From assembly GCA_029742005.1 (NCBI GenBank), contig GCA_029742005.1_4113.1: a DNA stretch of 64,000 nucleotides, one strand, 5' to 3'. Made by a program: the position numbers and the translations under genes. This DNA comes from a phage. The notes under the pieces were generated by a model. That model was not told the DNA's origin. It was given only the letters and a program-made list of their open reading frames with translations, and ran no database searches. Shown one piece after another: positions 5,339 through 48,804 of this stretch (within the stretch, counting starts at the first letter, position 1; each line of letters starts with the position of its first letter).

Positions 5339-5342
5339 ATCT

Positions 5343-20494: not shown

Positions 20495-20522
20495 CTTGAC
20501 AGAAGATATCAGTACTGTATAA
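20495..20522 (+). promoter_or_regulatory. sigma-70-like early promoter (class A)
   Basis: TTGACAGAAGATATCAGTACTGTATAAT. Confidence 0.6.
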
Positions 20523-20568
20523 TGTTTATATCAAACGAAATCCACTTTAACAAATGATAGGAAATATT

Positions 20569-20847
20569 ATGTCTTTTTCTAAAGAAGAACGTGACCTTAT
20601 TAAAAAAGCAATTTGGTTTTATGCTAATGAAGGGAAGTGCGATGAAGAAAAAGCACGTGAACTGTGTAATATCCTTGAGAAGAAACAAGAACTGAAAGTG
20701 TTTCGTATCCGTGATTTGGATGAAGGGGATCGTATTGTCCTAGCTGAAACAAAAGAAGAAGCAGAACAAATCTTCACTGATAAAAACGAAAATCCACATT
20801 GGATGGAAGAAGTCTGTGATGTTAAAAAAGGTACTTATATCGATTGA
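20569..20847 (+). CDS. hypothetical protein
   Basis: ORF track with start moved to MSFSKEER. Confidence 0.5.
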   Translation: MSFSKEERDLIKKAIWFYANEGKCDEEKARELCNILEKKQELKVFRIRDLDEGDRIVLAETKEEAEQIFTDKNENPHWMEEVCDVKKGTYID

Positions 20848-20872
20848 CAGTACTGAATAATAGCAGTATAAT
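20844..20872 (+). promoter_or_regulatory. sigma-70-like early promoter (class A)
   Basis: TTGACAGTACTGAATAATAGCAGTATAAT, 17-bp spacer. Confidence 0.55.
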
Positions 20873-20965
20873 GTTTATATCAAAGGGAATGCAGTGAAAG
20901 GAAAGACAGCATAATCGTACTCGTCACTGCGTTCCCGCCCTTTTAAATTAAATGAGGAATTAACT

Positions 20966-26393: not shown

Positions 26394-26585
26394 ATGTTGA
26401 TTTATCAAAGTGATAATATTCGTGTTATGCAGCATCCCTACTTACAAATCTTTGATGTGCAGCAGTATATGGAAGGTGATGACCCAAGAACCTATGGTCG
26501 TAAGTATGATTACTTCACTGTAAAGCAGTGTAAAAATATTAACGAAGTACGACAATTAGTTCAAGAACTTCAAAACAAAGGTTGA
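26394..26585 (+). CDS. hypothetical protein
   Basis: Internal ATG after AAGGA RBS (MLIYQSDN). Confidence 0.45.
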   Translation: MLIYQSDNIRVMQHPYLQIFDVQQYMEGDDPRTYGRKYDYFTVKQCKNINEVRQLVQELQNKG

Positions 26586-26611
26586 CTTCGGTCAGCCTTT
26601 TTTGTTATAAT
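26580..26611 (+). promoter_or_regulatory. combined terminator-like stem-loop and sigma-70-like promoter (class B cassette)
   Basis: GGTTGAC-TTCG-GTCAGCC hairpin plus T-run; TTGACT inside the stem, TATAAT 17 bp downstream. Confidence 0.6.
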
Positions 26612-26639
26612 TCTCTTAATAAATTAGAGGATTTTAATT

Positions 26640-27080
26640 ATGTATGTATATCGTTTTGAACTTAAATTTAGTTACATTGAACCTAACTTAGATCCTGCAC
26701 GAACTGTAGGTCCGTTTGCACGGTATTCAACCAGATACAGTACTAAAAATGGATTTGACCGTTTGCTCATGACTACACCTTCTCAATTCCAACCTGAACC
26801 AACTGAGGATGGGATCTATTCAATCAAAAGTGGATGGGTATTTGGCTGTCAAAGTTTGAAAGATTTGTTCAGATTCTTCACTATGGACTTAGGTAAATTG
26901 CATCGTGCTGGGTTTGCTATATCTGTATATGAAGTTCCAGACCACCATGTAGACATTGGTCGTAATCAGGTTCAGTACTATTGCGGTAGTGCTAAATTAG
27001 TTCGTATCATGTCAGTTAAGGAAGCAAAGGATGAGTTCCGACAAAGTAAAAGAGAAACAAATGAGGTAATATATGGATAA
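26640..27080 (+). CDS. hypothetical protein (146 aa)
   Basis: ORF track; AGAGGA RBS. Confidence 0.55.
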   Translation: MYVYRFELKFSYIEPNLDPARTVGPFARYSTRYSTKNGFDRLLMTTPSQFQPEPTEDGIYSIKSGWVFGCQSLKDLFRFFTMDLGKLHRAGFAISVYEVPDHHVDIGRNQVQYYCGSAKLVRIMSVKEAKDEFRQSKRETNEVIYG

Positions 27081-27417
27081 AACTCAAATAGAATTAAAGA
27101 AATTTGTTTCATTCTATCTTCCTGATGACCCACGTAATTCACAAAAAGATATTGAATATTATAATATCCTATCTAAACAGTTAATGAGAAAGTTTCAACA
27201 GTGTTTAACAATATTCAATACAGATGGAAGACGTAGATACCGAATCGTTTCAATGAATGATGAAAACGCAAATTTCTTTGATTACGATGTGGTTTTTAGA
27301 GCATATAATGATGATCGTATAAAATTAAATTATGATCAAATTATACTTGACCTGAATGTTATATGTGTTATAATCACTCACGTAGCCGAACTTAATGGTT
27401 TTAAAGAATGGTATTGA
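27073..27417 (+). CDS. hypothetical protein (114 aa)
   Basis: ORF track. Confidence 0.5.
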   Translation: MDKTQIELKKFVSFYLPDDPRNSQKDIEYYNILSKQLMRKFQQCLTIFNTDGRRRYRIVSMNDENANFFDYDVVFRAYNDDRIKLNYDQIILDLNVICVIITHVAELNGFKEWY

Positions 27418-27431
27418 ATAGAGGATAACAT

Positions 27432-27698
27432 ATGAAGCTTAAATTACAATATAATGGATTTACTTTACGTAATGATACTGAATTTATTAATCGTTCTCCT
27501 GGTGCTGAACTGTTTTTACGAGAGATGAACATTCCTTTCATCATTACTACAGTGGGCGACCGTGAAGTTCTACAATACGCAGAGCATCCGATCATTGATG
27601 TTCCTTGGTACTCTGAGCATATGTACATGGATATGGCACGTCGCTACAACTGTAAGTTCGTAGTTGAAGGTGATAAAATTACAGTCGAATTTAAATAA
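27432..27698 (+). CDS. hypothetical protein (88 aa)
   Basis: ORF track; AGAGGA RBS. Confidence 0.5.
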   Translation: MKLKLQYNGFTLRNDTEFINRSPGAELFLREMNIPFIITTVGDREVLQYAEHPIIDVPWYSEHMYMDMARRYNCKFVVEGDKITVEFK

Positions 27699-27709
27699 GG
27701 TAAATTAAA

Positions 27710-28003
27710 ATGATCAGTACTTCAGTTAATGAAAGCATCGTCGCTGACGTAGAAATGGTTAAAGAATGTGCAGATGAAACTCTTCGTGATATGTACATTA
27801 ATGATTTAATTACTGAATACGGTAGTCGTGGTGTACACGAATTTATTCGTTTAAGTGGAGAGTTGATGAAAAATCGAATTCGTATGAAGCTTAACGTACA
27901 TCCAAAAGCATGGGCATTTACATTAAAATACGCAGAAGATATTGTGAATTTGCGTCGAACTGAAGTATATGAACGTTTGCACAATGGTATGTTAGATAAA
28001 TGA
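27710..28003 (+). CDS. hypothetical protein (97 aa)
   Basis: ORF track. Confidence 0.5.
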   Translation: MISTSVNESIVADVEMVKECADETLRDMYINDLITEYGSRGVHEFIRLSGELMKNRIRMKLNVHPKAWAFTLKYAEDIVNLRRTEVYERLHNGMLDK

Positions 28004-28055
28004 TTGTAAAATAGGAATTCTTAAATGAATTCCTTTTTGTTTATAAGGTATAGTA

Positions 28056-28277
28056 ATGAAATATATAGTACTTGTACTGATATTATTCAGTACTGTTGTA
28101 AGTGCTAAACAAAAAGAATATGTTAAATGTATAAATTATGAAGAGAAATATGTTGAAACATATAAAAAAAGTATAATTAAAAACGTTTCGATTACTAACA
28201 GAGCAACAATCATTGTACTTAAAAATGGGTTAATTATGCTATATAAACCACACGTTAAATGTGAAATTATTAATTGA
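28056..28277 (+). CDS. secreted small protein
   Basis: Signal peptide MKYIVLVLILFSTVVSA. Confidence 0.5.
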   Translation: MKYIVLVLILFSTVVSAKQKEYVKCINYEEKYVETYKKSIIKNVSITNRATIIVLKNGLIMLYKPHVKCEIIN

Positions 28278-28284
28278 GGAAATT

Positions 28285-28857
28285 ATGAATCGTAAAGGTC
28301 GTTTTAAAGTATCAAAAAAGAACAAAAGTTCTAGGTTTAAACCTATTGTTTTAACAGTTAAATCTAACAAAGATTTAACTGCACTTAGTAAAAAGATAAT
28401 TTCATCTAAGATTGAAGTATCATACGTAAATTCATTAAAATATATGAATGTCAAACCACTGGACCAACTCATTTCACTTATATTTGAACGTAATGATTTT
28501 GAGATATCAGTAGATGATTATAGAGCCTATAATGCTGGTTTCATTAATGTTACTTGTAATAAAAAACTAACTGAGTTGGAAAATTTGTCATGTATAATAA
28601 ATCTAGATAAAGGTGTTGTGAAGTACCATTTTGTACATTTCACTAATATCAATAATGGAATGGGTGTACAATCCAGACCTATAGTGCCTACATGTGATGT
28701 TACTAAATTAGCAAAGCTCAATGATGAAGAATATTTTCAAGAAAGTATTGTGACTGAGCATTTAGATGATATAATAGCTACTTACAAAGAGTGCATATGG
28801 GTTTTGAATTCTATAAAGCCTAAATTGTGTTTAATGAATATTGTTCGTGATTTATGA
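28285..28857 (+). CDS. hypothetical protein, C-terminal EEYFQESIVTEHL motif family
   Basis: Internal ATG after GAGGAA RBS. Confidence 0.5.
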   Translation: MNRKGRFKVSKKNKSSRFKPIVLTVKSNKDLTALSKKIISSKIEVSYVNSLKYMNVKPLDQLISLIFERNDFEISVDDYRAYNAGFINVTCNKKLTELENLSCIINLDKGVVKYHFVHFTNINNGMGVQSRPIVPTCDVTKLAKLNDEEYFQESIVTEHLDDIIATYKECIWVLNSIKPKLCLMNIVRDL

Positions 28858-28870
28858 ATGGGGAATCGTA

Positions 28871-29314
28871 ATGAGTTGGGTAAATGTTAATAGTATTGAA
28901 CTTAACGAACAAGATATTTTTGCATTTGTAAATTTAACCAATAATACAGTACTAAAAGGGCGTTTGTTCAGTGCGAGTGATGGATATAAATGGATCTCTT
29001 TGATGGATGATAGTGGTGTGATTTATAATGTAATGCAATTACCCCAATGGGTATATAGTAACACTGCCGACGATGTTCTTGCCGCAGTTATGCGTGAGTT
29101 TGAAAAACTCCCAGGTGGTGATATCAAAAACAAAGTTTTTAATGCAGAACGGAAAAATTATACAGCACAGCAGTTGGAATCCCTTGCCATTGCTGCTTAT
29201 CAAGCTGCTATTAAGAAGCCAGAGTGCGTTATTCTTAAGTATGTACCAGACTTAAAACTTACGTTGGAAGACATGGATGCATTCATTTTTACATCTGAAC
29301 TTGATCAGTACTAA
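28871..29314 (+). CDS. hypothetical protein
   Basis: Internal ATG (MSWVNVN). Confidence 0.5.
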   Translation: MSWVNVNSIELNEQDIFAFVNLTNNTVLKGRLFSASDGYKWISLMDDSGVIYNVMQLPQWVYSNTADDVLAAVMREFEKLPGGDIKNKVFNAERKNYTAQQLESLAIAAYQAAIKKPECVILKYVPDLKLTLEDMDAFIFTSELDQY

Positions 29315-29429
29315 TTTAACTTTGGGACAACCATTCTTATTATGATATAATGTTTTATGTCATTCGATATAAATGACAACGGAACTATAAATATTATAGT
29401 AAAATTTATCTCTTATAGGAGTTATAAAA

Positions 29430-29813
29430 ATGGTTGATAAATGGAATAAGAAAGATCCATCACATGATGTTGATATTTCTGGTCTAGACAATGCACATAA
29501 GCACAAGTATCTAGATTCACTAGGTCTTCTAAAACCAGACCAAAGTCTTGCACATGATCGTCCATCCCGTGAAAAAGCATTTAGCCTAGAATCACTAGGT
29601 CATGAGCTTAATCGTGTGTTTGAGGATCACCCAATCTATGTACGTGATATTATCGAGAAACTTAAAGTAACTCCTAAAGAGCACTTTAAAGCAACTGTAC
29701 ACTCTGCATTCCGTGCATTACATGAATCTCTAAAGAAAACTCACAATCTTCGTAAAATTCATGATGAAATCGTGAATGCAATCGAAAGTGAAAAACATAA
29801 GTTCAAGAAGTAA
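29430..29813 (+). CDS. hypothetical protein, shares LGLL N-terminal motif with 31120..32364
   Basis: ORF track; AGGAG RBS. Confidence 0.55.
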   Translation: MVDKWNKKDPSHDVDISGLDNAHKHKYLDSLGLLKPDQSLAHDRPSREKAFSLESLGHELNRVFEDHPIYVRDIIEKLKVTPKEHFKATVHSAFRALHESLKKTHNLRKIHDEIVNAIESEKHKFKK

Positions 29814-29821
29814 TAAAAAGG

Positions 29822-29858
29822 GGTTGACTTCGGTCGGCCTTTTTTTATATAGTAAATA
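29822..29858 (+). promoter_or_regulatory. terminator-like stem-loop with embedded TTGACT (class B cassette, weaker -10)
   Basis: GGTTGAC-TTCG-GTCGGCC plus T-run, then TATATA. Confidence 0.5.
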
Positions 29859-29891
29859 TATGAAATAATAAAGATTCAGGGATTATATTTC

Positions 29892-31076
29892 ATGGCTAGT
29901 GGGATACGATTAACACAAGAAGAAGCTGAAAAATTAGTAGCGAATAGATGTTTAGAAGAAAATTATACATATAAACCTTTCACTTATATTAACACTAAAA
30001 CAATATTAGAACTTAAATGTGATAACTTTGAACATGAAGAATGGAAATGTAAATTTAGTAAATTCATTTACAAAAGAACTGGGTGTCCAGAATGTAAAGG
30101 AAGAAATTCTTTAAAAGAAAAAACAGCAAGAACTAAAGTTCATGAAATATGTGAATTAAAAGGATATACTTATGAACCATTTGATTTTAACGGTGCTATA
30201 GGAACAAAAATAATAATTCATTGTGGAGTTGACTCTCATAAACCACATGAAACTAATTATAATTCTTTAGTTAATAAGAAAAATGGATGTATTGAATGTG
30301 GTGGAAAGTTAAAATTAACCCAACAACAAGCAGAATTAAATGTAATTAACATATGTAATACTACTGGATATACTTATAAACCTTTTGAATATAAAAATAA
30401 TAGAACTAAAATTACATTAAAATGTTGCAATCCCGACCATGATGAATTTAGTTTAAGTTATGATAAATTTGTATATCAAGGTAATGGGTGTGTAAAATGT
30501 GGAAATCAATCTACAGCTAGAAAACTTTGTCTTTCGCAAGATGAATCAATTAAAAGGCTTAATGAAATTTGTACATCTAAAGGATATACTTATAAACCAT
30601 TTATATATAAAAATGTACATACATTAATTACATTAAAATGTTCAGAATGTGAACATCCTGAATGGACAACTCGATATCAAAATATTGTTCAAAAGCAACG
30701 AGGTTGTCCAAGTTGTAGTCGAGGTGGATATGACCCAAATAAACCTGGTTATTTTTATATACATCGAGTTCTAGGTAATGGTAGGATATATTATAAATTT
30801 GGTATAACAAACAATTATATATACAGATTTGAACAATATAATAAGAATTTATTTAGAACTGAAAAATATAAAACATATTACAGTACTAATGGTATTTTAA
30901 TCAAAGAACTTGAATATTTTATTAAACATATGAGTGGCATAAAAAGAAAAGTTATTGATAAAATAAATTATTTAGATGGGTATACTGAAACAATCAATGA
31001 ATCAGAATATGAAAAATTAATAAAAATAATTGAATCATATAATGTACAAGAACTTGATGTGAACAGTATTAAGTAG
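29892..31076 (+). CDS. protein with four tandem zinc-ribbon repeats and C-terminal T5orf172/GIY-YIG-like domain
   Basis: Four ~65-aa repeats each with GYTYKPF and CxxC pairs; C-terminal GYFYIHRV...YYKFGITNN. Confidence 0.6.
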   Translation: MASGIRLTQEEAEKLVANRCLEENYTYKPFTYINTKTILELKCDNFEHEEWKCKFSKFIYKRTGCPECKGRNSLKEKTARTKVHEICELKGYTYEPFDFNGAIGTKIIIHCGVDSHKPHETNYNSLVNKKNGCIECGGKLKLTQQQAELNVINICNTTGYTYKPFEYKNNRTKITLKCCNPDHDEFSLSYDKFVYQGNGCVKCGNQSTARKLCLSQDESIKRLNEICTSKGYTYKPFIYKNVHTLITLKCSECEHPEWTTRYQNIVQKQRGCPSCSRGGYDPNKPGYFYIHRVLGNGRIYYKFGITNNYIYRFEQYNKNLFRTEKYKTYYSTNGILIKELEYFIKHMSGIKRKVIDKINYLDGYTETINESEYEKLIKIIESYNVQELDVNSIK

Positions 31077-31119
31077 TATAATAAATAATAATATATTTTA
31101 TGCTAAAGGAGGGCACACG

Positions 31120-32364
31120 ATGCCTAGTGATTATAATAATGGTGATATGAAGCACAGAAATGGTGCAATTGTTCAACATTCAAAACGCAAGTCGGAGTAC
31201 CGCCCTGCTGGAAACTATCATAGTGGTAGAAAAATGAGTCGTAACCAAAGCACTGGTGCACAAGGTGTAGAAAATGCAAAGCCGGGTGAAGTAACAGATA
31301 CTTCCAAAATGAATCAACATGAAAAATTAAAATACATGAATGCTTTGGGATTACTTAATGCTCATCAAAAAGAGCAACTAGCTGCAATGGATAAAGCACA
31401 AGAACGTCCAGAAGCAGCAGAAGCCCCCGCACAATCAAAAGCGACTAACCCTGTCAAAGAACTGTCTGATAAGTTAGGTAAGATTTTTGCTAATAAACCA
31501 CAACTTATCCAAGGTATTGTGAAAGAATTGCAATCTGTACCTAAAGAAGAATTAAAAGTCAAAGCACAAGCTGTACTTGATGCAATGAGTGGAAATACCA
31601 GTACTGAACCAACTGAAGTATTCAGTACTATAATGCGTGCACTTGAAGGTACGCAACAAGGTGATGTGCCTGCACAAGAGGAAGTAAGTCTTGAAAGCGT
31701 ACTTAAAACATTTGATAGTATTGGTAAAGAAGACCGTGCTAATGCTCAACAAGTTAAGAATGTACTAGCTAAGTTAGAAAACCGTCTGGAAGGTAAAGAC
31801 GATAAGATTAAATTAGTATCTGATGCAGTTAACGATGCACTTAAATCTTATGTACAAGGTGAAAAGAGTCGTTTTGTAACTGCAATGGATGCTGCATTCA
31901 ATACTATGAAAAAGTATGAAGCTGATCATGGTGAGAAGGTTACACGAGATGGTTATCTGATGCGTGATGATGAAGAAGGTGCAGTAGAACAGAATGATGT
32001 TCATTCAGACGAAGAAATTGATGACATGGAAGCTGAACTGTCACAAGACCGCCAAATGACTGAAAAATCCCATAACGAACTACAGAAATTAATGCAATGG
32101 GTTGCAGATGTTGGTGAAAAAGCTGGTGCTGATAAGAAGAGTATAAACCGAAATCTTAGTTGGATTAAAGATAAAGTTGGTAACAACGCTCGTAAACTAC
32201 AAAAAGCGTGGACTGATGTAGTGAATGGTGCTGTTGACATTGATGTTGAATCCGGTGAGGCATATGATTATGCATTGACTACACTTGATGACTCTTTCCG
32301 TGATTACGAAAATGGAAATGTAACTCCTTGGGAAAAGGATATCATGAGCAAATACGGTAAATGA
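31120..32364 (+). CDS. hypothetical acidic protein (414 aa)
   Basis: ORF track; AAGGAGGG RBS. Confidence 0.6.
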   Translation: MPSDYNNGDMKHRNGAIVQHSKRKSEYRPAGNYHSGRKMSRNQSTGAQGVENAKPGEVTDTSKMNQHEKLKYMNALGLLNAHQKEQLAAMDKAQERPEAAEAPAQSKATNPVKELSDKLGKIFANKPQLIQGIVKELQSVPKEELKVKAQAVLDAMSGNTSTEPTEVFSTIMRALEGTQQGDVPAQEEVSLESVLKTFDSIGKEDRANAQQVKNVLAKLENRLEGKDDKIKLVSDAVNDALKSYVQGEKSRFVTAMDAAFNTMKKYEADHGEKVTRDGYLMRDDEEGAVEQNDVHSDEEIDDMEAELSQDRQMTEKSHNELQKLMQWVADVGEKAGADKKSINRNLSWIKDKVGNNARKLQKAWTDVVNGAVDIDVESGEAYDYALTTLDDSFRDYENGNVTPWEKDIMSKYGK

Positions 32365-32374
32365 TAAAACAAAA

Positions 32375-32406
32375 GGTTGACTTCGGTCAGCCTTTTTTTT
32401 GTAAAT
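32375..32406 (+). promoter_or_regulatory. terminator-like stem-loop with embedded TTGACT (class B cassette)
   Basis: GGTTGAC-TTCG-GTCAGCC plus T8. Confidence 0.55.
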
Positions 32407-32436
32407 ACAAAAGAGGAATTAAGAAGAGGGATTACA

Positions 32437-32688
32437 ATGAAAAAATATATTATATTTGGAATTGTATTATTTTCCAGTACTACTTATGGTGCAGATTATC
32501 ATTGCTCCGTAGCAAGGCAGGATTTCAGAAATGGGGAGTTCTATACTACCTCATACACAAAAGGAATAATACACGACACCGACAGAACTATTGGATTTAA
32601 TGCGTTTGACAACAAAGATTCATATACTTCAGGTATACTATCTGAGCGTAAGACGGATGTACTCGGAATAGAAAAAGAGTTTCGGTGA
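32437..32688 (+). CDS. secreted small protein
   Basis: Signal peptide MKKYIIFGIVLFSSTTYGA; internal ATG after AGAGGG RBS. Confidence 0.5.
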   Translation: MKKYIIFGIVLFSSTTYGADYHCSVARQDFRNGEFYTTSYTKGIIHDTDRTIGFNAFDNKDSYTSGILSERKTDVLGIEKEFR

Positions 32689-32698
32689 TTCCGTGGCA

Positions 32699-33022
32699 AT
32701 GTGTAATGACATTGAAAGTACTAAAAAAATTTATTATAATAATGAAATAAATTATCGTTTTCATAATTTAACCACAAATAAAAGTTTACTATTTTACAAT
32801 TGTAAAGAAGTAAAATTCCCACCAGACAATAGCTGTACTCCAACTAATCAACCCCCAGCACAATGTAATACTCCCTCTGAACCTGATAAAAATAAAAAAG
32901 ACAAAGATAAAGATAAAAAAGAAGACAAAAAACCTTTAAAAGATAAAAAGAAAGATAAAAAACCTAATCCGTTTAAAAATAATAAACCAGCACAACCCGA
33001 TATGACGTGTAAAATAAAATAA
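32699..33022 (+). CDS. hypothetical Lys/Asp-rich low-complexity protein
   Basis: ORF track; KDKDKDKKEDKKPLKDKKKDKKPNP tract; start uncertain. Confidence 0.4.
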   Translation: MCNDIESTKKIYYNNEINYRFHNLTTNKSLLFYNCKEVKFPPDNSCTPTNQPPAQCNTPSEPDKNKKDKDKDKKEDKKPLKDKKKDKKPNPFKNNKPAQPDMTCKIK

Positions 33023-33031
33023 GGATATAAA

Positions 33032-33451
33032 ATGAAAAAGATTTTTTTAAGTATTATTTTAGTACTTTTTAGTTTTAATGTATATGCAGCAGATGCTAAA
33101 CAGGTTGCTAATACAGTAAAAGATGTTATAGTAGACAATGCTCCTACCTTAGAGGAAATTGGGGTAAAAACTTGTGATATTGTAATATATAATTTAGTTA
33201 ATGATGAACGAGTTATGTTGAATACGTATGAACAAGTAGTCCCATTGGTTGAATCTGGTGCTGCTTTTAGCTTTACATATAAAGTTAAATTAACAGGAGG
33301 GGTTGAAGTTAATCTTGACATTGATACCGCTTCAGTACTAAAAGATAAACTAGGATATGTGTTCAATCGTATTCGTGAAGAAGGTCATCTTAAGTATGTT
33401 TATGAAAGTAAAATACTAAAACGTGCAATAGTTATAGAAAACTGTAAATGA
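33032..33451 (+). CDS. secreted protein
   Basis: Signal peptide MKKIFLSIILVLFSFNVYAADA. Confidence 0.55.
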   Translation: MKKIFLSIILVLFSFNVYAADAKQVANTVKDVIVDNAPTLEEIGVKTCDIVIYNLVNDERVMLNTYEQVVPLVESGAAFSFTYKVKLTGGVEVNLDIDTASVLKDKLGYVFNRIREEGHLKYVYESKILKRAIVIENCK

Positions 33452-33460
33452 TAATAAAAG

Positions 33461-33492
33461 GGTTGACTTCGGTCAGCCTTTTTTGTTATGAT
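33461..33492 (+). promoter_or_regulatory. terminator-like stem-loop with embedded sigma-70-like promoter (class B cassette)
   Basis: GGTTGAC-TTCG-GTCAGCC-TTTTTTG-TTATGAT. Confidence 0.55.
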
Positions 33493-33520
33493 GTTGATAT
33501 TAACTACAGAGGATAAAGTA

Positions 33521-34162
33521 ATGACTAAGCAAGAAATATTCAAAACTTTAATTGACATTTTGCGTCCATCAAAAACTCGTTGTGCGATGGAGTTTGATAT
33601 TCCTTATGCTGAACGCGTAATCTTTCCACAAGTTAAAGCTGCTGGACTTACTTTGCTTGGAATGGGGATGTACTCTGTAGTAGTTGAACATAAAAACTAT
33701 CCTGGGCGTGCATTTAAAGTAACCACTTCACGCTGGGATGGTTTTCGTGCTTATGCAATGTACTGCATTGAAAACGCAGGAACCAAGTTTCTTCCAGTGA
33801 TCTACAGTGCAAACGAACAAGGAAACTTTGGATGGTATGAGATGGACAAGTACTATCCTATAATTAAACAAAAAAATAATTATGATGACTTTGTTAGTAC
33901 TAAAATTGGAGATTTATATTCTTATGCACATGCTGGTCAGTATGCTACTTCAGTGAATGATATGCGTGGAAATTCTGAAGAGATTGCTATTGCGACGGTC
34001 GCTGCTAACATCATGAAAGAGTTTCACGGGCGTTTTGTACCAGACATTCATTCCAGTAATGTCATGATGGATAAAGATGGCAATGTATTCATTACTGATC
34101 CTCTTTCGTGTGATGTACGTAGAGAAATACCAGTTACTGAAGAAGATCCAGTTTTTTATTGA
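33521..34162 (+). CDS. protein kinase-like fold protein
   Basis: Catalytic-loop-like DIHSSNVMMDKDGNVFITDP; start at internal ATG after AGAGGATAAAG. Confidence 0.5.
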   Translation: MTKQEIFKTLIDILRPSKTRCAMEFDIPYAERVIFPQVKAAGLTLLGMGMYSVVVEHKNYPGRAFKVTTSRWDGFRAYAMYCIENAGTKFLPVIYSANEQGNFGWYEMDKYYPIIKQKNNYDDFVSTKIGDLYSYAHAGQYATSVNDMRGNSEEIAIATVAANIMKEFHGRFVPDIHSSNVMMDKDGNVFITDPLSCDVRREIPVTEEDPVFY

Positions 34163-34224
34163 CAGAACTGATGTAATGAGGTATTCTTAATAAACCATTA
34201 AAAAGTGCGGTAAAGGATAAAATC

Positions 34225-34506
34225 ATGCGTTCATTTGAAAACTTAATAGGTAAGAATCTTTTATCTGAAATTGATGCAGACGTTAAAGAATTATCCAAAT
34301 CAAAAAGTTACATTCATTTGGATGAACTATTTGTTAAGTACGGTGAGATTGGTTTTAAGTCATTATTTGTTTTTACTATGAAAGTACATAGTTTAAAGTA
34401 CTTCGATTTGAGTGCTAAAGATGGTGAACCGAATCTATATTACATGTATTACCTTAAGAACAAAGATGAAGCTAATACATTACTCTCTGAATATATATTG
34501 GGGTAA
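34225..34506 (+). CDS. hypothetical protein (93 aa)
   Basis: ORF track; AAAGGA RBS. Confidence 0.5.
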   Translation: MRSFENLIGKNLLSEIDADVKELSKSKSYIHLDELFVKYGEIGFKSLFVFTMKVHSLKYFDLSAKDGEPNLYYMYYLKNKDEANTLLSEYILG

Positions 34507-34508
34507 AA

Positions 34509-34847
34509 ATGGAACAATATTTTGAATTAATAAACAAAGTATCATTTTATGTAGTATCTTTGGTTTGGGTGTATTATATGTTTTGCTACATTATTGCATT
34601 CTTCCGATACACTACTTTATATGAACGTATCTACTATGATGCCCCAATTTCATTCTTGATGTTTTGTGCATGTACGTGGGGAATATTAGAAGTACTGATA
34701 TGTGGGTATAGTACTGATGAATTAAATCTGGTATCGGTGTTGACTGGGTTTTCATTTGTTGTTATGATAGCTGCCGTTCCAGTATGGTTGTTCTTTGGAC
34801 TAGTTCATCGCATTGATATATGGCGTTCTAATATCCCTGAAAAGTAA
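34509..34847 (+). CDS. small 3-TM membrane protein, array member
   Basis: Three hydrophobic helices; C-terminal RSNIPEK. Confidence 0.55.
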   Translation: MEQYFELINKVSFYVVSLVWVYYMFCYIIAFFRYTTLYERIYYDAPISFLMFCACTWGILEVLICGYSTDELNLVSVLTGFSFVVMIAAVPVWLFFGLVHRIDIWRSNIPEK

Positions 34848-34850
34848 GGA

Positions 34851-35198
34851 TTGGTAATGATTTATTACACTAACATGTTTGCCTATGCTGTTGCTTGCAT
34901 TTACATTGTTTACTTCTTATTCGGTGGAGTACTGTGCTTCTTTAAGTACAAAACGTTGTTCAACCGAATGTACCCAAATCATCCAATTGTAGTTGTACTT
35001 TTGATTCTTTCAGTTTCTCAAATAATCGTTGAAACTACAATGGGTATCAGTAGTGTACATTATAGTTTTGGTACTATAGTAATTATTACTATGCTTATTG
35101 CATACATTTTAGTACTTGGATATGGTATCTTTGGTAATATTGGTATGAAAATGTATCATCGAATTAAAACATTACGTGATAATCTACCGGAGCGTTGA
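34851..35198 (+). CDS. small 3-TM membrane protein, array member
   Basis: Paralog; C-terminal RDNLPER. Confidence 0.55.
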   Translation: MVMIYYTNMFAYAVACIYIVYFLFGGVLCFFKYKTLFNRMYPNHPIVVVLLILSVSQIIVETTMGISSVHYSFGTIVIITMLIAYILVLGYGIFGNIGMKMYHRIKTLRDNLPER

Positions 35199-35199
35199 T

Positions 35200-35544
35200 A
35201 TGTATAATTTGAACCTAATCTCATATATTATAACAACACTGTTTACATTCTATGCCTTTGTTGGTATAATCCTACTGTACTTTAAATTTTATAAAGTGTT
35301 TAACCGTTTCTATCCTTCAATGGAGAATGAGTTTTTCTTTGTGTTGTACGTATGTTACACATTCATGGCTACATGTTTCACTGTAGTCGATGGTGTCATC
35401 GGCATTAAAACTGCTGCACCAAATGGTAGTACGCTGGTTGCATTTATTCTTACCGGATTCCTTGCAACTTATATTGCCTTCATTGCAACATGGTCAGTGG
35501 TTGAATTTCTCTTGCGACTACGAAAGAATATGCCGAATCGATAG
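35200..35544 (+). CDS. small 3-TM membrane protein, array member
   Basis: Paralog; C-terminal RKNMPNR. Confidence 0.55.
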   Translation: MYNLNLISYIITTLFTFYAFVGIILLYFKFYKVFNRFYPSMENEFFFVLYVCYTFMATCFTVVDGVIGIKTAAPNGSTLVAFILTGFLATYIAFIATWSVVEFLLRLRKNMPNR

Positions 35545-35553
35545 GAGACATAT

Positions 35554-35808
35554 ATGTTTGCATTGCGTAACAAAAACACTAAAGAAATATTATGTTTAGA
35601 TACCGTATGGGATTGTGCGGGATCAACTACAGTTCTTGAAGAAGGAACTGGATATTGCGTGTTTGTTGTACATGATAGGAATGAACTCGAATTATTACTT
35701 GCTGAGTTCAATGCTGGTGGTAATCCTAACAGTACTGAATACCCTGAGATTATCAATCCAGCACCACCAGGCTCTTATGAAATTCTACAACTGTGGGAGT
35801 TGAAGTAA
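35554..35808 (+). CDS. hypothetical protein (84 aa)
   Basis: ORF track; GGAGA RBS. Confidence 0.5.
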   Translation: MFALRNKNTKEILCLDTVWDCAGSTTVLEEGTGYCVFVVHDRNELELLLAEFNAGGNPNSTEYPEIINPAPPGSYEILQLWELK

Positions 35809-36188
35809 TGCGTCAAATGCACAAAGTAACCGAGCTAAACAAGCGTCTGGTTAAACAATCAATGTTCGAGGATAAAGAGTCTTATTATAACTTTAAACGT
35901 GCAGTAGAGGCTGCTATCCACATTCAGAAGCTTAAAGAACGTGGTTGTATTATTCTGGAAAATGGTTCGGAAGTTGTAACGGATGACTTTAGTGTAGCGT
36001 TTGATGTTTCACCTGACGGGACGCTATCAATGCCCCGCTTAGGAACTGGAAACATGACTGTTTGGGTTGGCTTCACTATGGGGAATGTACCTGGTACTGT
36101 GTACGTAGATGATGCGGAATTGAAAGACAGTTTCAAAAACTTATCTTATCTTGAACCACAATACGCACATGAAATGAATTTATTTTGA
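35808..36188 (+). CDS. hypothetical protein
   Basis: ATG overlaps previous stop (TAATG). Confidence 0.5.
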   Translation: MRQMHKVTELNKRLVKQSMFEDKESYYNFKRAVEAAIHIQKLKERGCIILENGSEVVTDDFSVAFDVSPDGTLSMPRLGTGNMTVWVGFTMGNVPGTVYVDDAELKDSFKNLSYLEPQYAHEMNLF

Positions 36189-36189
36189 G

Positions 36190-36217
36190 TTGACAAACAC
36201 ATTCAGTACTGTATAAT
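36190..36217 (+). promoter_or_regulatory. sigma-70-like early promoter (class A)
   Basis: TTGACAAACACATTCAGTACTGTATAAT. Confidence 0.6.
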
Positions 36218-36264
36218 GCTTATCAAGGGGATGAATTTCTCATCCCTACAATCGAGGAACTACC

Positions 36265-36819
36265 ATGATTACTTTTAAGAAAACTGCTAACCACATCCAT
36301 GAAATCTACATTAACGGTCACAAAGCTGGCCTTCTTCGTTTACTCGCCCATCATCCTGATGTTACCGTATCTGATAATGAACCTAAAGATTGGCGTGTAT
36401 TTTTCTTTGGAAAGTACAGTGATTTTCAAGTATCAAACCTGAAGAACATTCGTTCAGTATGCACGTTAACTGAAATTAAAGAAAAGTTAGAAAAAGCATT
36501 GAAAACTAATCCAGATGGTGTTCTTCCACCTGATAACTTTGTAGAGAAAGGTTATGCATTAGCTCATTTCAAAGATGGTACTATTCAATCTATCAGTACT
36601 GAATATGAATATCAATGGACTGAGTACTTCACTTATGGATCGCGTAATACATTGATGGCTTCACGTAGTAAATTGGAAGAAGTACTGACTCGTATGAATG
36701 AACGCGAACGTCAATTTTATGACAAACCAGAAATGTGGAGTTCAACTTACATTGACCGTATTGACTATGTTATTATGACTCCAATCTTTGACACTGCTTA
36801 CTATGATTCTTTGAAATAA
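36265..36819 (+). CDS. hypothetical protein (184 aa)
   Basis: ORF track; GAGGAA RBS. Confidence 0.55.
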   Translation: MITFKKTANHIHEIYINGHKAGLLRLLAHHPDVTVSDNEPKDWRVFFFGKYSDFQVSNLKNIRSVCTLTEIKEKLEKALKTNPDGVLPPDNFVEKGYALAHFKDGTIQSISTEYEYQWTEYFTYGSRNTLMASRSKLEEVLTRMNERERQFYDKPEMWSSTYIDRIDYVIMTPIFDTAYYDSLK

Positions 36820-36830
36820 GGATAACTTAT

Positions 36831-37007
36831 ATGAAACTACGTACTCGTAATCGACTGATGGATGCACTGTACCATGAACAGCTTTCACTGAATGAAGTGA
36901 AGCGACAGTTAATGTACACATATCTGTTACCCGCTCGCATTGCAAAACAACGTGCTAAAGAATTGCTGAAAGAAGCAATCGAGTACTGGGAATCTGATTC
37001 GTACTAA
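36831..37007 (+). CDS. small basic hypothetical protein (58 aa)
   Basis: Manually read ORF below track cutoff; AAGGA RBS. Confidence 0.4.
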   Translation: MKLRTRNRLMDALYHEQLSLNEVKRQLMYTYLLPARIAKQRAKELLKEAIEYWESDSY

Positions 37008-37035
37008 TTGTCACGTTAATTAAGTGAGGCGATAA

Positions 37036-37287
37036 ATGAAAATTTTATTAGTTCTAATACTACTAATTGTTTTACCATTTACGTTAGTATCCCCTGGACT
37101 TGCATGGAATGTGTTTGTGTACTTAGTATGTACTATTGTAGTAAATGGTATCTTGTTCTTAGTTCTATTCATAAATGGAATAGGACACGGTGGAGGATGG
37201 ACCAGTACTGCTGATATTGTACATAAAACCACTATGTCTTTATTTGTAGTGTGGAATTTATTCTGGACTTGGTTTGTGTTCTTCTAA
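37036..37287 (+). CDS. small integral membrane protein
   Basis: ORF track; hydrophobic throughout. Confidence 0.5.
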   Translation: MKILLVLILLIVLPFTLVSPGLAWNVFVYLVCTIVVNGILFLVLFINGIGHGGGWTSTADIVHKTTMSLFVVWNLFWTWFVFF

Positions 37288-37299
37288 TTAAAAAAAAAT

Positions 37300-37671
37300 A
37301 TGAATATAGATTTGAAAGGTGCAACCCGAACTGTCATACTCATTGGGGAATATGCTATCAAGATTCCAACCTTTAAAAGTTGGAAGCTATTCTTAACAGG
37401 GATGATAGCTAACCTCAATGAACGTTCTTGGATGCAGTACTCCAAGCGTAGTGATAGTGGTATCTGCCCTACGTTGTGGTCATCATGTACTGGACTAGTA
37501 ACTGTACAGAAACGTTGTAAGCCAGTACAACATAGGGGTTTATTTTGGGTGGAGTTGTGTGCTTTAGCATTGAATTCAGAGTTAAGTACTGACTTCTTCT
37601 ATTCAGATGCGAAGCCAGAAAACTTTGGGTATCTGGGTGGTAAGTTAGTTAAACTTGATTATGGAGATTAA
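37300..37671 (+). CDS. minimal protein-kinase-like protein (123 aa)
   Basis: Ordered kinase-like motifs: G-rich LKGATRTVILIG, YAIKIP, DAKPENFGY, KLDYGD. Confidence 0.45.
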   Translation: MNIDLKGATRTVILIGEYAIKIPTFKSWKLFLTGMIANLNERSWMQYSKRSDSGICPTLWSSCTGLVTVQKRCKPVQHRGLFWVELCALALNSELSTDFFYSDAKPENFGYLGGKLVKLDYGD

Positions 37672-37672
37672 T

Positions 37673-38095
37673 ATGTACGCACTGTATAATAAAGAAAAGA
37701 AACAATTTGCTAAGGTTGAAAAATCGATTGATACATTTGGCATGTTTAAGTACTGTATTGTGACGGACCCATATGCTAACTTGTATTACGTTCTTGATGA
37801 CGTATCAGTACTGCAACGATTGCTTGAACGTTCCAAAAGCCAATGCCAAGGTATCCATGATGGTTCAACTTATGAAACACCTGAGTGTTCCTATGGCTAT
37901 CTGGATGGGTATGAGATTGTGAAGTTGGGTGCATTGTTGATTAATGAGGAATTTATGAAACTATGTACATGTGATGATTGTGGTAAACAAATACCAGAAA
38001 GTGAAGTATATCGTAATGAAACTGCATTCGGTGATGATGGTGACTACTGCCAGGATTGTTTTTACGAGAACCATTATGATTTTGGCGATGATTAA
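37673..38095 (+). CDS. hypothetical protein with C-terminal zinc-ribbon
   Basis: CTCDDCGKQ ... YCQDCFYENHYDF; internal ATG after GGAGA RBS. Confidence 0.5.
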   Translation: MYALYNKEKKQFAKVEKSIDTFGMFKYCIVTDPYANLYYVLDDVSVLQRLLERSKSQCQGIHDGSTYETPECSYGYLDGYEIVKLGALLINEEFMKLCTCDDCGKQIPESEVYRNETAFGDDGDYCQDCFYENHYDFGDD

Positions 38096-38101
38096 AACAA
38101 A

Positions 38102-38134
38102 GGGTTGACTTCGGTCAGCCCTTTTTGTTATAAT
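38102..38134 (+). promoter_or_regulatory. terminator-like stem-loop with embedded sigma-70-like promoter (class B cassette)
   Basis: GGGTTGAC-TTCG-GTCAGCCC, T-run, TATAAT. Confidence 0.6.
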
Positions 38135-38162
38135 CATTTCATCGAAACGAGAGGATGAATAC

Positions 38163-38678
38163 ATGACACGCATTAACTTAGTACACGTTAAAGAACTTGC
38201 TGACCAACATCTGATGGCTGAATATCGTGAACTCCCACGTGTATTTGGTGCTGTACAAAAACACGTTCAAGCACGTAAGCGTGTACGTGATTTCAAAATT
38301 AACAGTACTTACCTGTTAGGTTCAGGTCATGTAACATTCTTCTACAACAAGTTATTGTACTTACAGAAGCGTCATATTGATATTGTTAACGAATGTTTGC
38401 GTCGTGGTATGAAGATTCAAAACACTGAAGTAAACGACATTAGCGGATTCCCTGCTGAGTTTTGTAATGACTACGTACCATCGGAGTCAGAGATTAAAAT
38501 GTCTCGTGAGCGTTTGATTGAGAAGCTACAGATGAAGCCTACGTGGTATAAATTTACTGACGTTGAACGCCCACAGTATGTTAAAGATATGCAGGACGTA
38601 AGTAGTAATATAGAATCTAGTACTGATTTGTTCGACGAAATTGAAGAACAAATCAAAGATGAAATGAATAATTATTAA
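38163..38678 (+). CDS. denV: endonuclease V, pyrimidine-dimer DNA glycosylase
   Basis: N-terminal two-thirds closely matches T4 DenV as recalled from memory (MTRINL...[18 protein letters not shown]...KRVRDFKI...GHVTFFY); extra acidic C-terminal tail. Confidence 0.85.
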
Positions 38679-38685
38679 AGAAAAG

Positions 38686-38718
38686 GGTTGACTTCGGTCA
38701 GCCCTTTTTGCTATAATT
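38686..38718 (+). promoter_or_regulatory. terminator-like stem-loop with embedded sigma-70-like promoter (class B cassette)
   Basis: GGGTTGAC-TTCG-GTCAGCCC, TTTTTG, CTATAAT. Confidence 0.6.
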
Positions 38719-38745
38719 ATTTCATCAACTGATGAGGATAACGAA

Positions 38746-39516: not shown

Positions 39517-39583
39517 TTACATGTATTGACAGTACTACACTATGGTAGTACTATAACTTAATATTCACCACCGGAGATACGAT

Positions 39584-43203: not shown

Positions 43204-44373
43204 CTAAGCAGAAGGCATATCCTTCATCTTAATAAATGAAAATTGTGTACCAGTATTTGTGGTTTGATCAGTAAAATATGAATTACTACCAGCCCAGTAC
43301 AATTCATTATTAACTATACAATATATAACAGAACTCGAACTCTGTGAATACACACGACTTATATTTGATGGTTCTACTCCAGTACTGAACTGAACCGAAC
43401 CCAACTGTGAACTTGGTATCACATCAGTTGGTCTACCTAAACCATTAACACCAGCCCCACCACCACATGTATATACCCCAGTACTATCAGTTGATATATT
43501 AACATAACCATTCCCGGCATTTTCAAATAGTATTTCACTGGGAGCAACACCAAATCCTGTAAGATCTATTTTCCTGAATGTAGTGTAAACAGTAGAACCA
43601 CCAACACCTCTTCCACCATAATCATTAGAACCAGCCATATAGATACTATATCCAGAACTTCCTAAACATAATAACTGTACGTTGTCATATAATATTTGCA
43701 TAGATATAACGTTATCAGGAATACTCAATACCGTAAAAGTAGTTAAAGAAGAACTTCCAATATTACTACCAACCGATGTTCCACATCTGTAGTACTTACC
43801 GCCTTTTATATAATGGAACGATGAACCCCCTAACTTATGTGCTCCTATTGCACTTACCTCAGTATCTATGAGAATGGGAGATACAACTTTGTTATTAACA
43901 CCTAACTCAGATCTACTGTTCATACCGAACCCATATAAACGACCATCTAACATCAATATTAGTGTACTACCGGAAGTACCCGCTGACGTAAATTCTATAT
44001 TCTTTATTTGCGACACGTCAATACCTACAAATAATGAAGTTACTTCAGTCCAGTTAACATATGAACCACTAGCCCCAAAATATCCACCCATGTATAGACC
44101 TGCACAATATAATTTATTATCAACAGTCTTTATTAATGTACCGGATACACACGCCCAAAAATCATCAACTTCATAGGGTACATGTACCCAACCACCTAAT
44201 ACATCACTAGCATCCCCTGTACCTAATTTATAGTTCGAACCAGAACCACGCATGTACATATTCCCTGTACTATAAAGTAATCCGACATGTAATTGACTAC
44301 CATCCAATTTCTTTATTTCGGGAAGAGTTGGTTTAATATTTCCGTACTTTAACATTCTTCCAAAAGGTAACAT
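43204..44373 (-). CDS. RCC1-like beta-propeller repeat protein, array member 1
   Basis: Start at MLPFGRMLKYGN after AAGGAGG RBS; repeated Y-x-x-G-x-N-x-x-G-x-L/G-G motifs. Confidence 0.7.
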   Translation of the reverse strand: MLPFGRMLKYGNIKPTLPEIKKLDGSQLHVGLLYSTGNMYMRGSGSNYKLGTGDASDVLGGWVHVPYEVDDFWACVSGTLIKTVDNKLYCAGLYMGGYFGASGSYVNWTEVTSLFVGIDVSQIKNIEFTSAGTSGSTLILMLDGRLYGFGMNSRSELGVNNKVVSPILIDTEVSAIGAHKLGGSSFHYIKGGKYYRCGTSVGSNIGSSSLTTFTVLSIPDNVISMQILYDNVQLLCLGSSGYSIYMAGSNDYGGRGVGGSTVYTTFRKIDLTGFGVAPSEILFENAGNGYVNISTDSTGVYTCGGGAGVNGLGRPTDVIPSSQLGSVQFSTGVEPSNISRVYSQSSSSVIYCIVNNELYWAGSNSYFTDQTTNTGTQFSFIKMKDMPSA

Positions 44374-44444
44374 AATTCCTCCTTTATTCATTATACTATA
44401 TTTAATACAAAAAGAAAAGCCAGTACAGAGTACTGGCCTATATT

Positions 44445-45164
44445 TTAGACTGAATTGTTAGGATAATATCTCCCACGTCCCCATATTATTCGCACAGCAC
44501 CACCACCAGCAGCCGTATAAGAAAAATTATCCCATATACTACCACCACCACCATACATCTTACCAGCACCACCACTACCAGCACCACCATTATATGAACC
44601 ATCGTATCTACCGCCAATACCATTAGCACCTTGAACAATGATACCAGTACCACCACCCGTACCAATGAACGAGGTATTATAGAATGCACCACCACCGCCG
44701 CCGCCGCCAGCACCATTTTCACCAGTGATTGCATCTCCGTTACCACCTTTACCAGTGTAGCCACCAGCACCACCACCAATGACTGCACCACCACTTACAC
44801 CAGCGTTGCCCCCATTACCACCACCATCATTAATAGCGTTAGCAGCTTTCCCACCTAGTCCACCAACCCTATATTCACCAGTGAAGCTAACACATAGTTT
44901 TTCAGTTCCACGATATAAACCGTTTTCAACTGGTGTAGTAGTGTTGGGATGTGTAAGAGAAACACTTAAGTACTCACCACTAGTAACCGGAATATTATTA
45001 CGCCACGATAAGCCGCCACCAGCACCACGTTGACCACCCGGCGAAATAACACATACTGATATTTCGGTAACGCCAGCAGGAACTGTAAATTGTGTTGTTC
45101 CTATTGTCGTGATTAATTGTTCACCATGTGGCTTATATTCAATTTTATTCCCTCCTTTATTCAT
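44445..45164 (-). CDS. glycine-rich repeat protein (start codon uncertain)
   Basis: ~100-aa N-terminal domain then GGxGG-rich tract ending GGGAVRIIWG; same upstream cassette as RCC1-like genes. Confidence 0.55.
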   Translation of the reverse strand: MNKGGNKIEYKPHGEQLITTIGTTQFTVPAGVTEISVCVISPGGQRGAGGGLSWRNNIPVTSGEYLSVSLTHPNTTTPVENGLYRGTEKLCVSFTGEYRVGGLGGKAANAINDGGGNGGNAGVSGGAVIGGGAGGYTGKGGNGDAITGENGAGGGGGGGAFYNTSFIGTGGGTGIIVQGANGIGGRYDGSYNGGAGSGGAGKMYGGGGSIWDNFSYTAAGGGAVRIIWGRGRYYPNNSV

Positions 45165-45218
45165 TATAATATATTTAATACAAAAAAGAAAAGCCAGTAC
45201 TCTGTACTGGCTTTTACA

Positions 45219-46409: not shown

Positions 46410-46478
46410 ATTTCCTCCTTATTCATTATACTATATTTAATACAAATAAGAATGCCAGTATCAAGTACTGGCATTATG

Positions 46479-47588: not shown

Positions 47589-47598
47589 AATTCTCTCC

Positions 47599-48729: not shown

Positions 48730-48804
48730 AACTAAAATCTCCATATAATAATTATAATGTATTTACAAAAAAATACCAGTACATATTTCAGTACTGGCAT
48801 TTTG

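Follow-up and report, generated by a model that had tools for sequence, protein, structure and literature searches.

A 64,000-nucleotide (nt) stretch of phage DNA (the window; GenBank assembly GCA_029742005.1, contig GCA_029742005.1_4113.1) was analysed for a repeated intergenic element, GGTTGAC-TTCG-GTCAGCC followed by a T-run, which an earlier note made from the letters alone had described as a terminator hairpin embedded in a promoter. The six copies of this element are probably composite regulatory cassettes of the promoter-early stem-loop (PeSL) type, insulating early modules and serving as sites of exchange. The cassettes share the same parts in a fixed geometry, are strand-specific, are conserved across phage genera and coincide with module junctions; their promoter and terminator activities are predicted from sequence. 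Jumbo coliphages of the 121Q/PBECO4/JP4 group (Asteriusvirus, approximately 350 kb) matched the window region at 96-98% identity, and the source is thus an Asteriusvirus phage and not an RB49-like one, the group with which the element had been compared. This is a new host group (Asteriusvirus/RaK2-like phages) for a known type of element and not a new mechanism, because the PeSL type has already been described in T4-like phages. For a specialist the finding is confirmatory rather than surprising, the added point being that Straboviridae of Vibrio and Aeromonas have members of this sequence family too.

Copies and anatomy of the cassette

Searching the window with GGTTGACTTCGGTCAGCC, with 3 mismatches allowed, gave exactly six sites, all on the + strand, at positions 26580, 29822 (one mismatch, GTCGGCC), 32375, 33461, 38103, and 38686. 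The six copies listed previously are therefore real, with five coordinates exact and the fifth, given as 38102, off by one. Shuffled sequences contained a mean of 0.02 copies of GGTTGAC-TTCG-GTCAGCC, and none of 100 shuffles reached 6. All six copies were located inside 12.1 kb of the window, in its early region of small ORFs (open reading frames) (P ~0.001 for uniform placement of six points), and a search of intergenic positions in the whole window for TTGAC-loop-GTCA revealed no copy beyond them.

The cassettes are approximately 70 nt long and near-identical, with 45-50 nt of near-identity as direct repeats. Each copy is situated between the stop codon of the upstream gene, in an A-rich stretch, and the Shine-Dalgarno (SD) sequence and ATG of the next gene, and intergenic spacers of 54-78 nt hold all the parts. 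With p being the first G of GGTTGAC, the hairpin core extends from p to p+17 and comprises 7 pairs, including a conserved U.G pair, and a cUUCGg tetraloop; in most copies the stem is extended by 2-4 A-U pairs formed by the flanking A-run and T-run, giving 7-11 bp in total. The putative -35 hexamer TTGACT (p+2 to p+7) lies within the 5' arm, the 18-nt spacer consists of the 3' arm plus the T-run, and the -10 hexamer occupies p+26 to p+31, being TATAAT in copies 1, 5, and 6, TATGAT in copy 4, and TATAGT in copy 2. A TG is present one base ahead of the -10 in copies 1, 4, 5, and 6. Copy 3 carries just TTGTAAATAC in this position, with no usable -10, and is therefore taken as terminator-only. Thus, the TATAAT-like hexamer expected in most copies was found in five of the six, at a spacing of 18 nt and not the approximately 17 bp claimed before. 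Every copy is followed by 5-8 T, and a GAGGA-type ribosome-binding site and an ATG are found approximately 40 nt beyond. In cassette 1, the stop of the upstream open reading frame (ORF) is the TGA within GGTTGAC (26583-26585); in cassette 2, the GTCGGCC arm gives rise to two G.U pairs.

Terminator features

RNA folds on the + strand ranged from -14.1 to -18.9 kcal/mol (z from -4.8 to -6.2), whereas folds of the complementary strand reached only -9.3 and -12.0 kcal/mol, because the conserved U.G pair turns into C.A. The stem contains GC pairs, the loop is short and a U-tract follows the stem immediately on the transcribed strand, as in intrinsic terminators. In the GenBank record of phage G17, ARNOLD terminators with energies of -13.5 to -17 kcal/mol are placed on the homologous hairpins, and UE-S1 is annotated likewise. 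A simple terminator scan flagged 3 of the 6 copies; it missed the others because the A/U extension of the stem consumes part of the T-run. A bidirectional terminator was also considered and rejected, the minus-strand fold being 5-7 kcal/mol weaker and the flanking genes being all on the + strand.

A set of 108 non-identical instances of GGTTGAC-N4-GTCAGCC-N-TTTT was collected from IMG/VR. The loop, left free in this pattern, was TTCG in 41 instances, GAAA in 10, and GAGA in 8; UUCG and GNRA-type loops are classic stable RNA tetraloops. The closing pair, which lies outside the search pattern, was paired in 108/108 instances (G-C 84, A-T 13, G-T 7, T-A 4) compared with 90 under independence. This covariation, the tetraloop preference and the sense-only G.U pairs argue that structure rather than sequence is selected. 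These results, together with the two GenBank records, bear out the terminator-like hairpin of the earlier note. As a speculation, the conserved G of GTCAGCC might break an antisense -35 (GGCTGAC, and not GGTTGAC) and weaken the antisense hairpin.

Promoter features

Scored against the sigma-70 consensus, five of the six copies had 10-11 of 12 matches, four of them with TGn. A simple promoter scan, which detected 105 sites in shuffled sequence and 98 in the real region, was alone uninformative on promoters. Among the 108 IMG/VR instances, hexamers matching TATAAT at no fewer than 5/6 (at least five) positions were found at a spacer of 17-18 nt from TTGACN in 95, compared with 0-12 for each of twelve other offset pairs, and TGn preceded the -10 in 79. 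In a second IMG/VR scan, in which the T-run was left free, the asymmetric stem GTCAGCCC was accompanied by a -10 in 96 of 123 instances and the perfectly palindromic stem GTCAACCC in 14 of 64. These counts indicate that the -10 is tied to the asymmetric hairpin and not to AT-richness, and the locked distance agrees with the claim that the stem TTGAC doubles as a -35 element. A more generic IMG/VR pattern, TTGAC-N4-GTCA-N3-4-TTTTT, which addressed how common other clamps are (convergence or common descent), returned mostly noise; an extended stem plus -10, with mixed clamps, was seen in 14 of 112 among the matches listed.

Cassettes at module junctions in related genomes

The homologous region of ten relatives and the window (11 genomes) were each cut at their cassettes to give a module map. 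With a slash standing for a cassette, the maps read A/B/C/D/E/F/G for the window, A/B/H/I/D/E/F/J/K/G for 121Q, A/B/I/E/L/G for UE-S1, A/B/I/E/R/F/G for ph0011, and A/B/S/I/T/E/F/G for fEgEco12. The cassette-free segments A (5.6 kb), B (3.2 kb), and E (4.5 kb) were kept in all 11 genomes, and the short inter-cassette segments (H, S, D/T, R, J, K/M/N/O/V) were present, absent or swapped as whole units. The check proposed earlier, that cassettes mark module boundaries across related genomes, was therefore positive.

At cassette 2, homology to all 10 relatives stopped at 29850-29861, 11-22 nt past the hairpin. UE-S1 and ph0011 were without 32399-33443 (1045 nt), a segment ending at cassette 3 on the left and cassette 4 on the right; in its place they had one hybrid cassette, flanked on the left as copy 3 is and on the right as copy 4 is, in which 41-47 nt aligned to both copies. 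In fEgEco12 and WPEC3, this segment (module D) was replaced by an unrelated 682-nt module. Cassette 5 formed the right edge of a variable segment, and no similarity was found for window positions 37945-38095 as a remnant of the HNH gene that JP4 has there. At the site of cassette 6, behind the gene denV, 121Q, G17, JP4, ELP-22, PBECO4, and UE-S1 had additional genes amounting to 0.7-2.9 kb, joined within the hairpin, and the window, fEgEco12, and ph0011 had a single cassette. In 121Q and G17, denV was followed by a hairpin truncated past GGTTGACTTCGGT, an insert of approximately 2.9 kb and then a full cassette; the left end of the insert in 121Q was a GGTTGACTTCGGT/TACAC junction, and the downstream side of the right-end cassette in both phages was that of window copy 6. 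In 121Q, this insert has an endonuclease module between two cassettes identical over approximately 45 nt, where UE-S1 has one hybrid. The leaders were also mosaic: ATTATTTCATCAA, the leader of the neighbouring copies, was found in the pre-denV cassette of 121Q and likewise in cassette 1 of fEgEco12.

Between 24 and 42 kb, 30 distinct break points in homology were counted, 7 of them in cassette zones amounting to 2.3% of the sequence (0.68 expected; binomial P = 4e-6).

Endonuclease genes at the junctions

The gene at 29892-31076 encodes a protein matching PHROG 681 'endonuclease' (E 3e-66) and the HNH PHROG 559, with repeated CapR/treble-clef zinc domains, and the product is probably a free-standing homing endonuclease, judging from these matches. 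Ten relatives lack it and have a small gene and an extra cassette there, whereas TH47 (97.6% identity) and Klebsiella phage RaK2 (75%) have it at the same place. In JP4 and fEgEco12, a second junction has an HNH gene ahead of cassette 5. The third is the inter-cassette slot after denV, where 121Q, JP4, ELP-22, PBECO4, and WPEC3 each have a mosaic endonuclease of their own, with partial identity of 40-60% over separate domains (L001 17444-19612; L002, L003, L010, and L013); the window is without this slot.

Table 1. Positions of the cassettes, their predicted elements and associated features in the window
Feature	Position	Strand	Hairpin	-35	-10	Next start codon	RNA fold (kcal/mol)	Remarks
Cassette 1	26570-26639	+	26580-26597 (A/U extension 26577-26600)	26582-26587	TGn + TATAAT 26606-26611	26640	-14.1 (z -4.8)	SD GAGGA
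Cassette 2	29814-29891	+	29822-29839	29824-29829	TATAGT 29848-29853	29892	-18.3	
Cassette 3	32365-32436	+	32375-32392			32437	-15.1	U8 tract
Cassette 4	33452-33520	+	33461-33478	33463-33468	TGn + TATGAT 33487-33492	33521 (protein-kinase gene)	-16.9	
Cassette 5	38096-38162	+	38103-38120 (extended 38099-38124)	38105-38110	TGn + TATAAT 38129-38134	38163 (denV)	-17.6	Leader CATCGAAACGAGAGGA; predicted transcription start near 38141
Cassette 6	38679-38745	+	38686-38703	38688-38693	TATAAT 38712-38717	38746	-18.9	Leader CATCAACTGATGAGGA
Endonuclease gene	29892-31076	+						394 amino acids; just after the cassette 2 promoter, before a virion-protein gene
Module D	32399-33443	+						Three small ORFs (32437-32688, 32693-33022, 33032-33451) between cassettes 3 and 4
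Module F	38121-38703	+						denV (pyrimidine-dimer glycosylase, 38163-38678), single-gene unit between cassettes 5 and 6

Distribution of the cassette among phages

The cassettes were compared with the intergenic sequences of Vibrio phage nt-1 at 51-56 kb, which are named in PMC4122927 as a PeSL-dense stretch. The nt-1 sequences at 50.54, 54.95, and 55.55 kb had the same order of parts, including the -35 inside the stem, and the alignment spanned the A-run, GGG, in-stem -35, CCC, T-run, -10, and CATCGAAACGA / CATCAACTGA leader. nt-1 and the window also had leaders in common, namely ACATCGAAACGAGA (copy 5 of the window and the 55.55-kb cassette of nt-1) and ACATCAACTGAGAG (copy 6 of the window). 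Even the stem, GGGTTGAC...GTCAGCCC, was present in nt-1 (17.09 kb), phi-Grn1, and Aeromonas phage AS-szw.

BLAST searches with a 37-51 nt core returned 185-252 phage records, with 7-13 core copies per genome in RaK2-like jumbo phages and 1-4 in KVP40-like and Aeromonas T4-like phages. The RaK2-like carriers have hosts in Escherichia, Klebsiella, Salmonella, Cronobacter, Pectobacterium, Erwinia, Serratia, and Yersinia. The homologous 14 kb of 121Q hold 8 full cassettes and a truncated one, compared with 10 BLAST places genome-wide. Downstream of cassettes, 93 distinct proteins in 61 clusters were counted, a diversity indicating that the cassette is a general-purpose unit and not part of one gene. 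Among the 61 clusters, none with at least three downstream proteins joined KVP40-like and jumbo contigs, and denV was found behind a cassette only within the RaK2-like clade; hence there is no evidence for transfer of modules between the families.

The unit of approximately 50-75 nt is common to RaK2-like jumbo phages of enterobacteria and Vibrio/Aeromonas Straboviridae, together with a leader that is needed for neither promoter nor terminator function. It is quite unlikely that the cassette is a discrete, horizontally travelling element and more than a locally amplified motif. Were it so, the unit would be a portable docking site, like integron attC, through which unrelated large phages swap ready-to-express modules, the adjoining mosaic endonuclease genes might assist or exploit the exchange, and the U.G asymmetry, with no intact -35 left on the antisense strand, would hold the unit to one direction.

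Proposed mode of action

In the proposed PeSL-type model, the upstream transcript would end in the U-tract, approximately 13-20 nt ahead of the next start site, and the host sigma-70 RNA polymerase would start approximately 7 nt past the -10, ahead of the leader, GAGGA and next gene, so that the new mRNA would be without the hairpin. A terminator placed inside the promoter would free incoming polymerases before they occlude the -10/+1 region. In this way, each unit would make the genes that follow it a self-contained, insulated early expression module. Given 45-50 nt of near-identity as direct repeats, a length on which the recombination system of the phage should be able to act in removing, adding or exchanging modules, the cassettes would also be sites of homologous exchange. 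Such a role has been proposed before for the PeSLs of T4-like phages; the exchange was seen here by comparison of genomes, and its mechanism is what we infer.

Phages of this kind have approximately 600 genes each, more than 80% of them without known function, and their content shifts fast between isolates. The cassette offers landmarks for where the transcription units and accessory modules of jumbo phages begin and end, helps in predicting entry points of new genes, such as anti-defence genes, and is a compact terminator-promoter part for phage engineering.

Alternative explanations

Several observations weigh against the proposal that the cassettes are PeSL-type units acting in both expression and exchange. 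The endonuclease genes, of homing type, at the three variable junctions could cause indels without any cassette, and cassette-free indels are indeed present at 27696-28268, 28168-28281, and 37007-37299. Of the 13 break points in or near intergenic spacers, 6 were in cassette spacers, which make up 18% of the spacers and 32% of the intergenic bases; under this stricter null the enrichment over other long spacers is modest. In addition, cassette 1 is at an invariant junction, in the same position in 11/11 genomes. The cassettes could thus terminate and promote transcription but be passive markers in evolution, the indels coming from homing endonucleases or illegitimate recombination and the border-respecting ones being the survivors. 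We consider this unlikely, since the endonuclease-free modules H (183 nt), D (1085 nt), J (699 nt), T, and S move exactly cassette-to-cassette, the hybrid junction cassettes aligning to both parents carry the signature of homologous exchange, and leader segments were swapped between non-orthologous cassettes. Because endonuclease genes could make some of the indels and the stricter null shrinks the enrichment, the case for the cassette as a recombination substrate rests mainly on the hybrid junctions and these endonuclease-free modules, not on raw enrichment.

On the side of expression, copy 3 is without a -10 hexamer, the 18-nt spacer is one above the optimum, and a literature search for transcript maps of Asteriusvirus/RaK2-like phages found none, the distant PA5oct alone having one. 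It is conceivable, yet very improbable, that the copies are plain Rho-independent terminators copied around the region, with TTGAC and the TATAAT-like hexamer being incidental in AT-rich DNA and initiating nothing. The missing -10 of copy 3, the promoter-like sites being as frequent in shuffles as in the real region, and the G17 and UE-S1 annotators having marked terminators only would fit such a reading, but it conflicts with the spacing to which the -10 is locked, with the frequent TGn and with the preference of the -10 for the G-wobble stem over the palindromic one. Moreover, the homologous nt-1 elements have been published as promoter-terminator units (PMC4122927), and lacZ reporters showed activity for RB49 PeSL promoters and for the stem-loop terminator of one PeSL (PMC2839356). 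The inverted repeat overlaps the -35, and its stem is conserved beyond the needs of a terminator and recurs across phage genera, as could be expected of a DNA operator at which a dimeric phage or host protein shuts early promoters, termination being secondary or absent. However, the half-sites are consistently unequal (GGTTGAC and GGCTGAC), which fits an RNA U.G pair and not a symmetric operator, the variable loops favour RNA tetraloops, the closing pair covaries, a U-tract always follows, and the element always stands right after a stop codon; an operator as the main role of the repeat is thus extremely improbable, and protein binding may be an added function of the inverted repeat.

Gene setting and other repeats in the window

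The first 42 kb of the window (1-42 kb) form a + strand block of small ORFs, mostly unannotated and closely packed (median intergenic gap, 12.5 nt), in which longer spacers occur only at regulatory motifs. Most ORFs flanking the cassettes had no Pfam match. Genes behind cassettes include those for a T7 0.7-like protein kinase (121Q annotation), denV (Pfam PF03013, E 9e-15), an AAA-type ATPase, a lipoprotein-like small ORF, and an endonuclease. With gathering thresholds, Rfam detected six tRNAs only in the whole window, and the cassettes matched no curated RNA family. The six tRNA genes are clustered at 1185-5413, with CAGTACTG-type promoters in between.

The palindrome CAGTACTG (8 nt, with a ScaI site in it) occurred 63 times in the window compared with 0.9 expected, in genes and spacers alike (for example at 1733, 20510, 36204, 48789, and 59521), and was absent from the six cassettes. 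A second promoter class (TTGAC..CAGTACTGTATAATG) carries it in the spacer that separates -35 from -10, and it was also found in the stems of minus-strand terminators in an array at 44-55 kb. Within 20495-20880, a 321-nt segment (20545-20865) was missing in ELP-22, fEgEco12, ph0011, and WPEC3, where the junction has an overlap of 28 nt. On either side the segment ends in repeats of the second promoter class (..CAGTACTG..TATAATGTTTATATCAAA), and a second cassette type therefore behaves like the first in repeat-to-repeat indels. The array, at 44300-54850 on the minus strand, consists of approximately nine paralogous genes with near-identical 5' ends (..TTTGTTAGAATGTTTGATTATGGGAA on the coding strand) and a GCCAGTAC..GTACTGGC terminator hairpin after each gene, at a spacing of approximately 1.2 kb; relatives have RCC1-like 'regulator of chromosome condensation' genes annotated just beyond it.

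Two further composites were observed. At 39517-39583, TTGAC-AGTACTAC-ACTATG-GTAGTACT-ATAACT has a stem-loop between the -35 and -10. At 7300-7340, in AGAAGTTGAC-TTTT-TAACTTCT, the -35 is part of a stem (-9.8 kcal/mol) unlike that of the six cassettes. With these two, the genome would contain additional PeSL subclasses. In 121Q (L033, position 1965), outside the window region, a cassette with a T-A closing pair is followed by a GC-rich stretch (..GCCCACAGGGTGCAGGAG.., ..CCCATAGGGTGCGGCAATC..) and no SD plus ATG, and the identical conserved stretch was found behind the cassette in several jumbo-phage IMG/VR contigs; it may be a small RNA driven by the cassette.

Towards the end of the window, 60791-63916 contains a promoter-like unit (AAGTACTTGCA..N..GCGTATAATGTTTTACAT) repeated six times, in some instances with a GC hairpin after it, and a 54-nt GC-rich repeat was present in three copies, at 60231, 60447, and 63769. 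Rfam returned nothing for 57-64 kb at E up to 1. A spacer array at 59957-60056 had an 8-nt periodicity, with units of the GGCTAGAC/GGCTAAAC type and Tandem Repeats Finder (TRF) periods of 16, 24, 32, and 48.

Comparison with known systems

Within the same clade, sigma-70-like promoters of phage CBB were reported to concentrate in regions of short hypothetical ORFs (PMC5259590), as the cassettes do, and in G17 and UE-S1 the cassette hairpins themselves are annotated as terminators. Unlike in the present analysis, the CBB paper lists RpoD-like promoters and Rho-independent terminators separately; the literature on CBB, fEgEco12, and Sharanji was found to describe no PeSL-type cassettes, overlap, repeat family or link to module exchange, and the fEgEco12 and Sharanji papers mention neither promoters nor terminators of such kind. 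The denV unit also resembles the morons of lambdoid phages, being a single gene between other genes with its own promoter before it and a terminator behind, but morons are without conserved bounding repeats and their regulatory signals are not thought to drive movement (PMC2839356).

PeSLs consist of a sigma-70-like early promoter and a terminator stem-loop, with an AT-rich 5' side containing the upstream stop and an SD/ATG on the 3' side, and were divided into five subclasses by stem position, one of which overlaps the -35 box (Arbiol et al. 2010, PMC2839356). The elements of RB49 and phi1 are alike in these parts, in forming a unit of approximately 100 bp between stop and SD, in including the -35-overlapping subclass and in flanking ORFan modules, and crossovers have been mapped inside them, once in the loop (PMC2839356). 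They differ in that RB49 stems are typically Gn-loop-Cn, and in that promoter activity, terminator activity and mini-circle formation were demonstrated experimentally for RB49/phi1 (PMC2839356), whereas the activities of the window cassettes are predicted.

PeSLs were later described in PST/T4 and nt-1/KVP40 by Comeau et al. (2014), who also set up a category of 'degraded PeSL' (PMC4122927), which copy 3 fits. The published nt-1 consensus is A3-4G3-loop-C3T3-4 with TTGYVH-N17-TAWWAT (PMC4122927). The resemblance to PeSLs noted earlier was thus upheld by the -35-overlapping subclass and the nt-1 alignment, and the closest published type proved to be that of nt-1/KVP40 and not that of RB49. Compared with the nt-1/KVP40 elements, the window cassettes sit in an Asteriusvirus jumbo phage of approximately 350 kb, outside Straboviridae, have a -35 (TTGACT) nearer the sigma-70 consensus than TTGYVH, and have the stem GGTTGAC/GTCAGCC where most nt-1 copies have GGGTTGC/GCAGCCC, some copies in nt-1, phi-Grn1, and AS-szw having TTGAC. 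The two are alike in A3-4 G3, a -35-bearing stem, a 3-4 nt loop, C3 T3-5, TGn plus TAWWAT at 17-18 nt and a CATCGAAACGA or CATCAACTGA leader followed by SD and ATG, and likewise in clustering in variable regions of small ORFs with adjoining indels between close relatives. With promoter, stem-loop, stop-to-SD layout, clustering, coincidence with indels and relatedness all found in the window cassettes, the PeSL model is extended beyond Straboviridae, as its authors anticipated, and one may ask whether the elements as such pass from one phage family to another.

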